Shown here in pieces: positions 34,503 through 37,947 of a DNA stretch of 64,000 bases. The notes beneath the pieces are model-generated. The model was given only the letters and a program-made list of their open reading frames with translations. It did not search any database and was not told the origin of the DNA. Numbering within the stretch: position 1 is the stretch's first letter; the number at the start of each line of letters is the position of its first letter. The position numbers were made by a program, and so were the translations under genes. Source of the DNA: Deltaproteobacteria bacterium CG11_big_fil_rev_8_21_14_0_20_42_23 (lineage in GTDB: Bacteria > UBA10199 > 2-02-FULL-44-16); contig PCXC01000039.1 in assembly GCA_002796345.1 (NCBI GenBank), positions 4 to 64,003 on the forward strand. The letters run 5' to 3'.

Positions 34503-35663
34503 ATGAGTGTGACTATAAATAGGGTGCAGAAAAAAATTCAAGAAGCTCTCAGCAATGATTACAGAATTGATGAGCAGGAGATGAATGAAATAGAGGATTA
34601 TTTCAAAGAGGGTATTCAAGTTGAAGATAATTCCGCTGACACTATTACTTGGAATGAATTGAAAGTATCCTTATCTAATTCAATTACTGCAACTACTGCT
34701 CAACCACTTAATCCTTCAGAAGCAAGTGTTGAGCAGCTAAAAGTTTTAATGGAAAGAATTGAAACTCTCACAAAAGAAGCTGAGACGCTTAAAAGCGCTC
34801 TTGAAGCCGTTAAAGATGGCACAACTGCTGAAGATACAAAAAATAGACAACTGCTTCAAGCAAAGTTAAGCACAACACAAGCTGCTCTCAAAACTTTTCT
34901 TAATCAAGCTACAACGTTGGCAAAAAAATTTGATCAAACCGCATTGCTTAAAGATGAAATGTTTGAAGCTGCAGGTATGGACATCCCGGAAGAATTGCAT
35001 GCTCAGCAAAAGTCACTTCGTCCGCAAACACGTGCCATGGCAAATGGGCGTGGCGGAGCAAACACAGCCCAAAATGCAAGAGGGCAGAATGCTTCCAGAG
35101 CACTCAGTCTTCCACAATTGCAAAGCCCTGGCGTGAGAGCGCAAGGAACTGGTGATGGCGAAAACTTTCCAAGTGATGCTTTTCTTCGAGCTGGCGCACT
35201 TGATGATATCGCTCTCAATAACTTCGATCAAATTTCTCAGAATCAACGACGTGGTCAGGAACTGTTACGCCTTTTCCATAAGCTGGCAAAGCAAGCGATG
35301 ACAGGTGAACTCGAATACATGTTCGAGTTTTTCAAAGTGGTGAATTACATCGTTTCCAAAAGCCGAGGTAAATCATTGGTGGATATGGGAACGCGTTTGA
35401 TTCAGATTGAAAATCAAAACAAAGAAAACTTAGCTATTTTGCAAAATACAAAAATTGACCCCAACGATCCAAATGCAGCTTTTGAAATGACGAAGGCGCA
35501 GAGTAAATACACACAAGACAGTAAATCGTTGGAACTTTCGCAAAAAATGATCGCGCAAAATATGGAAGACATGGCTATCGTGGTGGAAACGATGAACAAC
35601 ACCTTAAAGGGTATTTTGGAAGCCAAAGGCAGAGTGCTTCGAAACATGTCTCGTTTTGGATAA
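34503..35663 (+). CDS. Hydrophilic coiled-coil protein; a candidate T3SS-secreted substrate (tip/translocator-like or effector)
   Basis: It has no TM segment or signal peptide, long heptad regions and a Gly/Asn/Gln-rich central linker. It is transcribed from a sigma-54 promoter and is immediately followed by an LcrH-class chaperone gene. Confidence 0.35.
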   Translation: MSVTINRVQKKIQEALSNDYRIDEQEMNEIEDYFKEGIQVEDNSADTITWNELKVSLSNSITATTAQPLNPSEASVEQLKVLMERIETLTKEAETLKSALEAVKDGTTAEDTKNRQLLQAKLSTTQAALKTFLNQATTLAKKFDQTALLKDEMFEAAGMDIPEELHAQQKSLRPQTRAMANGRGGANTAQNARGQNASRALSLPQLQSPGVRAQGTGDGENFPSDAFLRAGALDDIALNNFDQISQNQRRGQELLRLFHKLAKQAMTGELEYMFEFFKVVNYIVSKSRGKSLVDMGTRLIQIENQNKENLAILQNTKIDPNDPNAAFEMTKAQSKYTQDSKSLELSQKMIAQNMEDMAIVVETMNNTLKGILEAKGRVLRNMSRFG

Positions 35664-35687
35664 AGGATACCGTATGGCGCTGGCAAG

Positions 35688-36467
35688 ATGGGGGATGTGC
35701 TTCAAAAGTACAATCCCCCTCTTTTTACGGCGTATAATGACAAAAAGCGAAGAAAGAACGAAAGGTTGTCTAAAAGAATGGAAAAAACGGAATATATTTG
35801 GCATAATCAAGAAGTCTGCGATTTTACAGGCTTTTTGGAGATAAGTCCTATGGGAAAAGACAAAAAAGAAAAGCCGGCGAAAGCATCCGCATTCCGTATT
35901 GGCTTTGATGAGGCCATGCCAGAAGAAGAGGCCAAGCGCCAAGTGGCTGAATACATGCGCAAGCTCGAAGAGGAGTATAAAGATGTGCCTCCCGAAGAGC
36001 TTGAAGCTAGTGCCGAGAAAATGCGCGCCTACCTTCGCGGCGATATTGCGTGGGGAGACTTGTTCAACTTTAGCATCGAAGCGCTGATGGAAATGACCGA
36101 CTTCGGCTATCATCAGTTTAAAATGGGAAGATACGAAGATGCCGAGCGCATTTTCAAAGTGCTTACCGTTTTAGATTGGAACAATGCTTATTATCATTCC
36201 ATGTTGGGTTCCATTCTTCACCGGCAAAAACGTTATGCCGAAGCGCTTACCGAATACTCGCAAGCTATTGAACTTTCTCCAAACGATATTCCAAGCCATA
36301 CGCATCGTGGAGAAATTTATCTTATGCATGGTCTTTTGGACAAAGCCAAAGCTGATTTAGAAAAAGCTCTTTCACTTGATGAAAGCGATGAAAACAAGTG
36401 GGTGAATCGCGCACGTATTTTGATGCAGCAACTTGAAAAAAAACAAGCTGCACAAAAAAAGGATTAA
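35688..36467 (+). CDS. T3SS class II (translocator-type) TPR chaperone of the LcrH/SycD/CesD family, with an N-terminal extension of about 100 aa
   Basis: FGYHQFKMGRYEDAERIFKVLTVLDWNNAYYHSMLGSILHRQKRYAEALTEYSQAIELSPNDIPSHTHRGEIYLMHG forms three TPRs with LcrH-family spacing. The start is ambiguous; candidate ATGs are at 35688, 35778 and 35850. Confidence 0.6.
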   Translation: MGDVLQKYNPPLFTAYNDKKRRKNERLSKRMEKTEYIWHNQEVCDFTGFLEISPMGKDKKEKPAKASAFRIGFDEAMPEEEAKRQVAEYMRKLEEEYKDVPPEELEASAEKMRAYLRGDIAWGDLFNFSIEALMEMTDFGYHQFKMGRYEDAERIFKVLTVLDWNNAYYHSMLGSILHRQKRYAEALTEYSQAIELSPNDIPSHTHRGEIYLMHGLLDKAKADLEKALSLDESDENKWVNRARILMQQLEKKQAAQKKD

Positions 36468-36470
36468 CAT

Positions 36471-37379
36471 ATGGTTACTGAAATTAGATCGCAGACGGGA
36501 AGTCAGCGTCTAGGGCAGACTGAAGAGCGGCAGAAGGTTCTTGATGCGCTCAAAGAAGGAAATATTTATGAAGTCCTTCGGAATCTTCCCGAAGGTGTTT
36601 CTGCGGGAGATATTCAAGATTATTTTCGTGGTCAAGGTGCATATTATCACCAACTACTTCAAGATACAGAGCAATCTTTCGCGCACAAAGCATCAATGCC
36701 AGCGCCAGATCCCAGTATGTTTGTAGCGCATGAATCAGGGGTGCGCTTGACTGAAGAGGAACAAAAAGAATTGGCTCTTGCGCTTGAAGGCATGGCGAGT
36801 CCGCGTGCAATGAACATTAAAGGTGCTGGAAACGTTCGTGCGGAACATGTTGAAGGCGAACAAGATGCGGCGCATGCAGGAACACCATTAAGCAAAGAGG
36901 AACTTCAAGATCTCCAAAAAAGAACAAAAAATGATGTTGAATCAACCTTGTTTGAACTTATGGATAGAGTTTACGATCAACAAATGATGTCCGACTACAA
37001 AAGGCGTATGGCTGAAATTAAAAAAGAAATTGAAATCGCAAAACGTTCTGGAAATCCAGCGTTGATTATTGTTGCCTTGACTAAAAAAGTAATGCTCAAA
37101 AAAGGCATTTACATGAGCCGCATTGGAAAAGAGATGGCGCTTACCAATGAGAAGCTTAACAAAATTCAAGAAGATCTTGGAACAAGTACCGATGTAAAAG
37201 ATTTAAGCAAAGCCCAAGCCGATACAAGACAAGAAAACTTCAGCTTGAATCAATTGACCAGCGATTTTCAAAGTTTGGTTCAAGGAGTTGCTTCAGATCT
37301 TGAGTTTGCACAAAGTACAGTGCAAGACTATTTCCGTACTTCAAACGAAATTTCGCGCAAAGTCAGCGGACAAGGATAA
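36471..37379 (+). CDS. Hydrophilic helical protein; a candidate T3SS-secreted substrate
   Basis: It sits between the two class II chaperone genes. RBS aaggattaacatATG. The only hydrophobic stretch is the short PALIIVALTKKVML. Confidence 0.35.
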   Translation: MVTEIRSQTGSQRLGQTEERQKVLDALKEGNIYEVLRNLPEGVSAGDIQDYFRGQGAYYHQLLQDTEQSFAHKASMPAPDPSMFVAHESGVRLTEEEQKELALALEGMASPRAMNIKGAGNVRAEHVEGEQDAAHAGTPLSKEELQDLQKRTKNDVESTLFELMDRVYDQQMMSDYKRRMAEIKKEIEIAKRSGNPALIIVALTKKVMLKKGIYMSRIGKEMALTNEKLNKIQEDLGTSTDVKDLSKAQADTRQENFSLNQLTSDFQSLVQGVASDLEFAQSTVQDYFRTSNEISRKVSGQG

Positions 37380-37386
37380 ACAAATC

Positions 37387-37947
37387 ATGCAGACAGCTGA
37401 ACCTTCAAAAAGTACGCAGATTATAGATCCTACGCCGCCGCGTCGTAAGCATCTCATTGATGTCTTGTATGCGCTTATGGATGATAAGGTGAGTTATGCC
37501 GAAATGACAGGCGTGAAAAAACGTGAGTTGATCAATTTGGCAGAAGTGGGATTTGTAAAGTTGAGTCATGGCCGTTTGGAAGAGGCTGAAAAGATTTTTA
37601 GAGGTTTAAGTGTGCTTGATCATCGTAATGCCTATTTTCATGCGATGCTGGGTTCTATTCATCAACGTTTGGAAAGGCCTGTGGAAGCAATTTTGGAATA
37701 TTCTCAAGCCTTAGAATTAAATCCTCACGATATTTCAGCTCTTGTAAATCGTGGAGAAATTTATCTTCGCCACAAAAATTACCGCAAAGCAGCTGAAGAT
37801 TTTAAGTCTGCTATTTTGCACGACATGTCAGGTGCAAACTTGTGGGCGAACCGCGCCCGCTCTCTTGTGATTGCTATCAAATGTTCGCTGGAAGCCGATA
37901 AAGAAAGTGTGCTAAAGCGAGCCAGAAAATCCCGTTCCGGAAAATGA
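37387..37947 (+). CDS. Second T3SS class II TPR chaperone (LcrH/SycD family), a paralog of the 35688 gene
   Basis: HGRLEEAEKIFRGLSVLDHRNAYFHAMLGSIHQRLERPVEAILEYSQALELNPHDISALVNRGEIYLRHKNYRKAAEDF is nearly co-linear with the first chaperone. RBS acaaggataaacaaatcATG. The upstream part of the ORF overlaps the previous gene and is not counted. Confidence 0.6.
   Translation: MQTAEPSKSTQIIDPTPPRRKHLIDVLYALMDDKVSYAEMTGVKKRELINLAEVGFVKLSHGRLEEAEKIFRGLSVLDHRNAYFHAMLGSIHQRLERPVEAILEYSQALELNPHDISALVNRGEIYLRHKNYRKAAEDFKSAILHDMSGANLWANRARSLVIAIKCSLEADKESVLKRARKSRSGK

Follow-up and report, generated by a model that had tools for sequence, protein, structure and literature searches.

Layout of the four-gene module

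The window analysed here is a 64-kb stretch from the metagenome-assembled genome (MAG) of an uncultured groundwater bacterium, Deltaproteobacteria bacterium CG11_big_fil_rev_8_21_14_0_20_42_23 (lineage UBA10199, contig PCXC01000039.1). The element of interest is a group of four genes designated A, C, B and D, located 3' of sctRST at the end of a cluster of type III secretion system (T3SS) genes. The order is A, tetratricopeptide repeat (TPR) protein C, B and TPR protein D, all on the forward strand (34503-37947), and the features of this region are:

22116 to 34307, forward strand: T3SS apparatus genes, identified by Pfam and NCBIfam matches, directly 5' of A-C-B-D
34436 to 34451, forward strand: predicted sigma-54 (-24/-12) promoter TGGCAT-N5-TTGCA, TGGCATTGGCATTGCA, ending 52 nt before the start codon of A
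34503 to 35663, forward strand: gene A, hydrophilic Cys-free helical protein of 386 aa; ATG start with GAGGAG 5 nt upstream
35688 to 36467, forward strand: putative chaperone C, open reading frame (ORF) of 259 aa with a probable start at ATG 35850 (205 aa); TPR domain at nt 36036-36431
36471 to 37379, forward strand: gene B, hydrophilic Cys-free helical protein of 302 aa; ATG start with AAGGA upstream
37387 to 37947, forward strand: putative chaperone D, 186 aa; ATG 37387 with AAGGA upstream, within the ORF 37288-37947

The gap between sctT and A is 195 nt and holds the sigma-54 site, and those between C and B (4 nt) and between B and D (7 nt) indicate co-translation. The start of D is almost certainly ATG 37387 and not the TTG at 37288, which overlaps B. 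ATG 35850, preceded by GGAG, is the likely start of C: in an alignment of the 259-aa ORF with six syntenic homologues and Yersinia LcrH, nothing in the homologues corresponds to its residues 1-54. The initial annotation, made from the letters of the window alone, had described two ORFs of 386 and 302 aa each followed by an LcrH-class chaperone, and both the coordinates and the best-matching chaperone family (TIGR02552, below) bear it out.

Conservation of the module in related loci

Related loci were found by a SctT scan of genome and metagenome collections, and by following six more A-family proteins, chosen at falling similarity, to their contigs (P0095, P0106, P0070, P0009, P0107 and P0090). 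The order SctR-S-T, A, TPR, B, TPR is present in all seven A-family members looked up, down to an E-value of 4e-8 and about 22% identity, and loci L002 and L004 have the same SctT-A-TPR-B-TPR module. In every related locus examined the four-gene order is kept with 25-35% identity, which shows that the genes are real, and the conservation of the module indicates that the pairing is not a chance juxtaposition. Contigs running further show a sigma-54 activator with an FHA domain and then a PEGA kinase on the opposite strand. In L011, which lies on a contig of 363 kb in assembly GCA_016183065.1, the housekeeping genes beyond are also syntenic with the window, which indicates vertical inheritance in the lineage and not a mobile island. 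A distant system (L007/L008, SctT 42% identical) presents GrpE, a lipoprotein and ThiL after sctT, with neither A nor B, and therefore gives no information on the origin of these proteins. A literature search on the T3SS of lineage UBA10199 found nothing.

The region between sctT and A is an insertion hot spot in the relatives, where the sigma-54 promoter has each time been kept close upstream of A. The insertions are a 200-aa ORF of unassigned function or an acidic Asp-rich 211-aa secreted or anchored protein (L001/L004 11179-11781, L003 11046-11681), and a HEAT-repeat protein in L013 (8280-9551). The ORF of 412-423 aa between sctT and A in L013 was considered as a part of the module and discarded, being the HEAT-repeat insertion instead.

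Promoter and regulatory neighbours

Strict matching to TGGCAY-N5-TTGCW on both strands of the 64-kb window finds the site at 34436-34451 and no other. An equivalent site was identified 64-127 nt upstream of A in the nine other loci with DNA (10 of 10 with the window), nearly always as the sole match within each of them. Scans of 34200-38250 for sigma-70 promoters and terminators gave only background level. Two regulatory genes follow the module on the opposite strand:

38151 to 39587, reverse strand: sigma-54 activator (bacterial enhancer-binding protein, bEBP) with an FHA domain, convergent with the operon; Pfam FHA, Sigma54_activat and HTH_8
39553 to 42213, reverse strand: Ser/Thr protein kinase with PEGA repeats, recognised from the translation, upstream of and overlapping the activator gene

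The FHA-bEBP occupies the same position in all seven loci extending far enough (the window, L002, L011, L012, L013, L015 and L016). The kinase has a 50% identical homologue in L002, and Pkinase and PEGA domains are found at the same position in L011, L012 and L015. With a conserved promoter and a bEBP adjacent, A-C-B-D is predicted to be a sigma-54-dependent operon; the FHA-bEBP is the candidate regulator of the promoter at 34436 and the PEGA kinase the candidate input to its FHA domain. The simplest reading of this conservation would be a switch running from the kinase to the FHA activator and from there to sigma-54.

A second sigma-54 activator, with two FHA-domain matches, is located about 24 kb from the first (62214-63827, reverse strand), and the genome appears rich in FHA-bEBP and Ser/Thr kinase signalling.

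Chaperones C and D

The best NCBIfam family of both TPR proteins is TIGR02552 (LcrH_SycD), matched by C with an E-value of 6e-23 (81.0 bits, model positions 2-135 of 136) and by D with 1.6e-18 (66.7 bits, positions 2-114 of 136). Within NCBIfam both resemble LcrH more than CdsG or SctY. Several Pfam TPR models match C and D, with TPR_3 above its cut-off for C (27.2 vs 20.7 bits). The PDB matches include natural small TPR proteins, namely PcrH, SycD, AcrH and IpgC for C, and IpgC, AcrH and PcrH for D. By these matches C and D are assigned as SycD/LcrH-like TPR chaperones, and their 42% identity over 138 aa (E 6e-36) identifies them as paralogues.

C carries an acidic extension of about 45 aa before the point where LcrH starts, conserved in the C family, and the extension of D is marginal. 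The N-terminal extension proposed earlier for the first chaperone thus exists, at about 45 aa instead of some 100, and for the second chaperone it hardly applies.

Proteins A and B and their families

Neither A nor B has a Pfam, NCBIfam or PDB-sequence match, and word-seeded homologue searches with either protein alone gave matches confined to proteins of the same MAG. An exhaustive phmmer search with A recovered 115 cluster representatives, 99 of them at E<1e-10 and mostly of 350-450 aa, and together with the synteny this shows that A is no orphan in spite of its appearance in the word-seeded search. A is accordingly described here, from sequence comparison, as the founding member of an unannotated protein family, whose named members are all 'hypothetical protein' from uncultured 'Deltaproteobacteria bacterium' MAGs. 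T3SS-related Pfam families match none of the 92 members aligned, nor any of the eight members of the B family, and the A-family profile retrieves only generic coiled coils from the PDB. In Pfam some A-family members match EF-hands at the N-terminus. The eight B relatives were retrieved by an alignment seeded with the syntenic homologues, and more came from the fetched loci.

The architecture of both proteins is summarised below. The positions in A were taken from an AlphaFold2 (AF2) model built on the 92-sequence alignment, and KD19 is the Kyte-Doolittle mean over 19 residues.

34713 to 34928, forward strand: A residues 71-142, antiparallel helical hairpin, coiled-coil-like (helices 71-103 and 109-142; block with predicted local distance difference test scores, pLDDT, of 90-97 over 71-160)
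35031 to 35156, forward strand: A residues 177-218, disordered Gly/Asn/Gln/Ala-rich linker (pLDDT <50)
35172 to 35651, forward strand: A residues 224-383, C-terminal domain conserved in the family and built from three long helices (224-265, 270-315 and 325-383)
35262 to 35351, forward strand: A residues 254-283, hairpin tip around a conserved (S/T)G(D/E) turn, where A is at its most hydrophobic (KD19 peaks at residue 266)
37026 to 37115, forward strand: B residues 186-215, short hydrophobic hairpin around a conserved SG turn (B-family consensus RIIALAKQGxIGPEFVLIALAKV)

The model of A has a mean pLDDT of 80 and is all-helical, with small N-terminal helices and no strands; its C-terminal domain forms a block of pLDDT 80-95, at least 90 from residue 251. 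Conservation in the A family is concentrated in the last ~165 residues, with the consensus ...LMMLFFYFARMAxSGDxGAMYQFMxFITYIISKDKAxQ...DxxDP...IATSQKLIAQMMEEFAQVVExLTN... All the invariant or near-invariant columns (G268, D269, D287, K288, A289, Q291, K298, R307, T345, Q347, K348, L349 and E362) fall in residues 224-383, which are the family-defining part. The linker of A contains PQLQSP (205-210), which resembles PxLxxP in a test for the translocator type of chaperone-binding motif (P/V-x-L-x-x-P). B has a different conserved N-terminal motif, GNIYEV, where L27, G30, N31, I32 and V35 are invariant. Cysteine is absent from A, from B and from 80 of the 92 A-family members, and neither A nor B has a Sec-type N-terminus.

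A canonical EF-hand loop (DxDxDGxIxxxE) was identified in the first ~45 residues of 24 of the 92 A-family members (e.g. L004:12323-13438 and L013:10001-11191), and in the A of the window it is degenerate (residues ~16-28). A calcium-sensing N-terminus, as this motif suggests, would be unusual for a putative T3SS substrate. Another sample contains a fragment of 121 aa that shares 88% identity with the N-terminus of A, which suggests that a close strain exists. For B, a fragment of 202 aa with 100% identity is deposited under another locus tag on a separate contig (32 kb) of this MAG, pointing to redundancy in the assembly or to a contig that breaks within B.

A and B could be secreted effectors or toxins directed at a prey bacterium or protist instead of structural parts of the machine, with the TPR chaperones serving only for their stability. 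Both families lack known homologues and are fast-evolving (20-35% identity within the family), a canonical EF-hand loop in a quarter of the A family would respond to extracellular calcium, and the substrates of the needleless myxobacterial systems (T3SS*) are presumed to be lytic effectors (PMC10433427, PMC12075869). Effectors are usually variable, however, and A and B are fixed in order and number beside the core apparatus across deep divergence. No enzymatic domain is present, the conserved part being a long-helix domain of the oligomerisation type, and one dedicated translocator-class chaperone per protein is the pattern of structural substrates. An effector role is for these reasons considered unlikely.

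Paralogy of A and B and duplication of the module

The C-terminal domains of A and B (11 B sequences) are aligned by hhalign over 91 columns reaching both C-termini, with a score of 34.3 (P 7.4e-5, probability 62%). The scores of 150 column-shuffled B alignments were 13.2 +/- 2.2 with a maximum of 23.4, and the reversed alignment, a control preserving any heptad periodicity, scored 14.8. When the B profile was compared with all ORFs of the fetched loci A was the sole cross-match (E 0.074). The full-length hhalign comparison is weakly suggestive (P 0.002, probability 13%), and pairwise BLASTP and Smith-Waterman comparisons of A with B were not significant (whole proteins z 2.3; 7 of 300 shuffles at least as high). 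On the profile evidence the C-terminal helical domains of A and B, about 90 residues long in B, are distantly paralogous. With the paralogy of C and D, this shows A-C-B-D to be a tandem duplication of one unit of putative substrate plus chaperone. The initial proposal of two chaperone-partner pairs as new substrate classes is still the best reading of the locus, amended in that the pairs are not independent of each other.

Hydrophobicity and comparison with known T3SS partner families

KD19 was evaluated with 1.6 as the threshold for transmembrane (TM) segments, and the same script was run on the lcrGVH-yopBD region of Yersinia. The maxima are 0.61 for A and 1.19 for B, with no window of at least 1.6 in either protein, compared with 2.26 for YopB (31 windows at or above the threshold), 1.93 for YopD (6 windows) and 0.75 for LcrV. 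A is therefore as hydrophilic as a tip protein (LcrV) and B is intermediate. In the 92 members of the A family the maximum has a median of 0.88 and a top value of 1.52, none reaching 1.6; in the eight-member alignment of the B family the median is 1.52 and the top 1.68, with three of the eight at 1.6-1.68. The maximum of the most hydrophobic members of both families falls on the hairpin around the conserved SG turn. Each arm of this hairpin has about 12-14 residues. It is not a canonical TM hairpin; a tip that inserts shallowly into a membrane is one possible reading, and the interior of a soluble bundle is the other. The A and B of the window rank among the least hydrophobic members of their families; for these copies the absence of TM segments holds, yet membrane activity is still conceivable.

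The lack of convincing TM segments stated in the initial annotation is thus confirmed by comparison with YopB and YopD, and the description of the partners as hydrophilic is valid for the copies of the window and fails at the family level, where B relatives rise to 1.68 and the hydrophobic hairpin is conserved. Neither of the findings named at that time as fatal to the proposal appeared: there are no standard TM hairpins, and the searches of Pfam, NCBIfam and PDB sequences gave A and B no homology to a cytoplasmic family.

No similarity was obtained by hhalign between A or B and YopB or YopD (P 0.09-0.56), LcrV (P 0.5-0.9) or LcrG (P 0.16-0.47), and the translocator families of Pfam match none of the 92 A-family or 8 B-family members. 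This bears directly on the idea that A and B are ordinary translocators of the YopB/YopD type whose TM hairpins were overlooked. Their lengths of 386 and 302 aa resemble those of YopB (401) and YopD (306), LcrH-like chaperones are adjacent, and three of the eight B-family members just reach the KD19 threshold. Against the 31 windows of YopB and the 6 of YopD, however, neither A nor B has one, nor does any of the 92 proteins aligned for the A family, and with neither profile similarity nor a translocator family this explanation is hardly credible. Tip proteins of the LcrV/IpaD type (SctA) have a central coiled coil with a mixed alpha/beta domain beside it and an LcrG-type or intramolecular chaperone. 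This type was also considered and was rejected as the main reading on the hhalign results, the strand-free all-helical AF2 model of A and the TPR partner chaperone. The Foldseek matches of A to the coiled coil of IpaB (residues 74-242, E 0.5-0.95) are not significant and were not used as evidence.

A different possibility is that A and B are not exported and act in the cytoplasm as regulatory or gatekeeping partners of the TPR proteins, for instance as an SctW-like plug or in a partner-switching device tying secretion to the FliA-like sigma factor or to the sigma-54 activator. A class II chaperone can indeed bind a hydrophilic helical gatekeeper, as Scc3 binds CopN (PMC4222845); no SctW (HrpJ-domain) gene was found in the 64-kb window, and the cluster has its own sigma factor with a flanking activator and kinase. 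Nevertheless the AF2 model of A, with helices of 42-59 residues and a long disordered linker, is unlike compact gatekeeper bundles, and Foldseek retrieved none of them. The gatekeepers MxiC, YopN/TyeA and CopN consist of compact helical-bundle domains. HrpJ was found neither in the 92 proteins of the A family nor in the 8 of the B family, the gatekeepers known so far undergo secretion too, and gatekeepers do not usually come with a chaperone gene for each partner. A cytoplasmic role is for these reasons improbable, and the SctW gatekeeper as the leading explanation was rejected on the HrpJ and Foldseek results.

The T3SS apparatus of the window

The cluster at 22116-34307 codes for a CdsG-like TPR protein, SctJ, a FliA/WhiG-type sigma factor, a FliG-like protein, FliH/SctL, the SctN ATPase, SctO (YscO-like), a FliK/SctP-like protein, a FliM-like SctQ, a FliN-like protein, FliO, SctR, SctS and SctT. 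SctR clears the yscR cut-off of NCBIfam and not that of fliP, and the ATPase clears both the FliI_clade2 and SctN cut-offs. The apparatus is therefore a mixture of flagellar traits (FliG-, FliM-, FliO- and FliK-like proteins and the FliA/WhiG sigma factor) and injectisome traits (SctJ, the YscO-like protein and the yscR-type SctR). The genes of flagellar type are located as follows:

24655 to 25545, forward strand: FliA/WhiG-type sigma factor, within the T3SS cluster
26035 to 27042, forward strand: FliG-like protein, within the T3SS cluster
29697 to 30494, forward strand: FliK-like protein, within the T3SS cluster
30507 to 31421, forward strand: FliM-like protein, within the T3SS cluster
31916 to 32260, forward strand: FliO, within the T3SS cluster

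No sctU, sctV, sctC or sctD was found in the whole 64-kb window, so part of the secretion system must be encoded elsewhere in the genome. As had been stated before, neither a canonical hydrophobic translocator nor a gene of the LcrV/IpaD type was found elsewhere in the 64 kb. The pore-formers may likewise be encoded outside the window, as are sctU, sctV, sctC and sctD.

A third pair of 'substrate + TPR' type lies at the start of the cluster (21484-22565) and comprises a 179-aa Ser/Gly-rich protein followed by a 149-aa TPR protein. The C-terminus of the former (21484-22023; …LQSFNIKSNILSADHRARMSMIEKFTARG) looks needle- or axial-protein-like, and no Pfam or PDB match was obtained, including the needle and flagellin families. 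The best NCBIfam match of the 149-aa protein is CdsG, a needle chaperone, under the cut-off (42.6 bits). The last 45 columns of the B profile align with the last 48 residues of the 179-aa protein (hhalign 25.6, P 0.005), a weak match to a single sequence.

This pair is pertinent to the explanation that A, B or both assemble into an axial filament or extend the needle, similar to EspA, Bsp22, SseB or flagellar-type axial proteins, where C and D would act like YscG/PscG/CdsG by capping a C-terminal polymerisation helix and no pore would be formed. The apparatus retains flagellar traits (FliG-, FliM-, FliO- and FliK-like proteins), A and B are hydrophilic at the level of LcrV, conservation runs to the very C-terminus in both families, and the C-terminus of B aligns with that of a protein itself followed by a CdsG-like TPR. 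That match is weak, however, and the 179-aa protein itself is not recognised as a needle or flagellin. Furthermore A and B match none of the Flagellin, Flg_bb_rod, needle and EspA models of Pfam, and C and D are closer to LcrH than to CdsG or SctY. A filament is thus quite unlikely.

Two small proteins of the cluster were left without annotation. One is a 168-aa ORF (25520-26026), present at the same position in L011 and L016 and possibly similar to the inner rod (SctI). The other is a 151-aa protein (23631-24086) in which a single segment is of TM grade (KD19 1.81); no other small protein of unassigned function in the cluster is hydrophobic.

Proposed function of the module

The T3SS of the window is flagellum-like but non-flagellar, and the explanation preferred here is that A and B are chaperoned export substrates of it that form a tip- or translocon-like distal structure, a proposal held with evenly balanced confidence. 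It is suggested by the position after sctRST, the LcrH-like chaperones, the conserved module, its duplication, the hydrophobic hairpin tip kept in both families and near TM grade in B relatives, and the separate sigma-54 control, traits read from the DNA and its predicted products. A and B also have the traits of substrates: no Sec N-terminus or TM segment, a linker between helical domains in A, conserved C-terminal helices and no cysteine.

In the mechanism proposed, the Ser/Thr kinase would signal to the FHA-sigma-54 activator, turning the operon on independently of the apparatus genes. In the cytoplasm C would bind A and D would bind B, masking the hydrophobic hairpin and/or the C-terminal oligomerisation helices and keeping both proteins export-competent. 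C may use its conserved acidic extension to dock the complex on a sorting platform or gatekeeper, in the manner of the Scc3 extension. A and B, lacking a Sec signal, would then be exported through the T3SS and oligomerise outside the cytoplasm by means of their shared C-terminal three-helix domain. The product would be a distal tip- or translocon-like structure with hairpin tips touching the target membrane.

Several results weigh against this proposal. C and D both score under the curated equivalog cut-off of TIGR02552 (104.8 bits), for which reason they are called LcrH-like and not equivalogs, and in the PDB search designed or consensus generic TPR proteins outscore PcrH, SycD, AcrH and IpgC. 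The PxLxxP-type motif of A is not kept in its relatives, which carry (F/Y/L)PPxGW(G/S) instead. The hydrophobic arms of the hairpin are only about 12-14 residues long and amphipathic in the copies of the window (KD19 0.61 and 1.19), so they may just belong to the interior of a soluble helical bundle. When the model of A was compared with the PDB by Foldseek, no match fell below E 0.1. For B the AF2 model, based on 8 sequences, is helical but unreliable (pLDDT 44) and unusable for a fold search. Both proteins are predicted to be mostly helical, at low confidence for B. The 64-kb window has no secretin, SctD, SctU, SctV or confirmed needle, and the machine may stop at the inner membrane. Finally, the related myxobacterial systems are described as needleless (PMC10433427).

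Comparison with known systems

Among known kinds, the closest fit is the injectisome module of class II chaperone and distal substrate, represented by SycD/LcrH with YopB/YopD, PcrH with PopB/PopD and IpgC with IpaB/IpaC. As in the window, small chaperones of three TPRs are found beside two helical partners of ~400 and ~300 aa, and coiled-coil-type helices with a central more hydrophobic hairpin are common to those partners and to A and B. The differences are that the window has one chaperone per partner, encoded after the partner and not before it, that A and B lack TM-grade helices and similarity to YopB/YopD and are mutual paralogues, that the chaperones are below the cut-off, and that the operon is of the sigma-54 type. 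In class II chaperones the TPR groove is where translocators bind, and Scc3 binds the gatekeeper with its N-terminal extension (PMC4222845). Tip and translocon proteins evolve too fast to be detected by sequence searches (PMC3459982).

Chlamydial Scc2 and Scc3, which go with CopB/CopD, CopB2/CopD2 and the gatekeeper CopN, are likewise two paralogous LcrH-type chaperones in one organism with an N-terminal extension before the TPR domain, and in Scc3 there is already a class II chaperone with a hydrophilic helical partner, CopN. In contrast, the extension of C (~45 aa, acidic) has no demonstrated similarity to that of Scc3, no CopN/SctW homologue was found in the window, and CopB and CopD, the partners in Chlamydia, are translocators of the hydrophobic kind (PMC4536800).

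The 'Myxo' non-flagellar T3SS (NF-T3SS) of the Myxococcales, or needleless T3SS* (Myxococcus xanthus mxan_2434-2464), is early-branching and described as an evolutionary intermediate from a former deltaproteobacterial lineage, with several LcrH homologues, no recognisable needle, translocon or secretin, and substrates that are not known (PMC3459982, PMC10433427, PMC12075869). Likened by description only, the window is also without a secretin or canonical translocon and has FHA signalling nearby. It differs in its FliG-, FliM- and FliO-like genes, since the Myxo systems are reported to lack FliG (PMC3459982), and its locus has no sctU or sctV.

More than one chaperone gene interleaved with distal-end substrates is also seen in Bordetella (BcrH1/BcrH2) and in the SPI-2 operon of Salmonella (sseA-sseB-sscA-sseC-sseD), where Bsp22 and SseB, hydrophilic filament or tip proteins, share the operon with the translocators. 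Those operons also hold clearly hydrophobic translocators and the likeness is one of arrangement only. The harpins HrpZ and HrpN, T3SS-secreted helper proteins with weak membrane activity, are Cys-free, hydrophilic and helical with Gly-rich segments like A and B, a likeness of composition only, with no sequence similarity. TPR chaperones are not known for harpins.

Early flagellum-like NF-T3SS are described without needle, translocon or known substrates (PMC3459982, PMC10433427, PMC12075869). The locus supplies conserved candidates in the form of two unannotated families paired one-to-one with translocator-class chaperones, together with a putative dedicated sigma-54/FHA/kinase switch whose promoter and activator would offer a handle for inducing the system experimentally. 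Export of A and B would reveal the cargo of these machines, and whether hydrophilic helical proteins can build a distal or membrane-contacting structure; if they are cytoplasmic, the locus would show a new use of LcrH-type chaperones. A further step, which is speculative and rather doubtful, is that A and B are the first recognisable substrates (a 'proto-translocon' or tip) of an ancestral-type flagellum-like NF-T3SS of the needleless myxobacterial T3SS* kind. In that case translocator-class chaperones and a duplicated pair of distal substrates would predate the hydrophobic translocon of the YopB/YopD type, and the short hairpin tips of soluble helical bundles would touch the target membrane, possibly that of bacterial prey, under kinase/FHA/sigma-54 control.

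Other genes of the window

Two further groups of genes were identified outside the secretion locus. PrkA kinase, DUF444 (YeaH-like) and SpoVR form a conserved stress/starvation triad (47802-52568) downstream of a MlaE/MlaF/MlaD operon (45354-47763). On the reverse strand (7084-10389) a protein of 1101 aa presents an acidic repeat of the Pro/Glu type, matched by the trypanosome PARP repeat model under its cut-off. The same protein has weak glycoside hydrolase 123 matches, with the catalytic domain marginally above the cut-off and the N-terminal domain below it.

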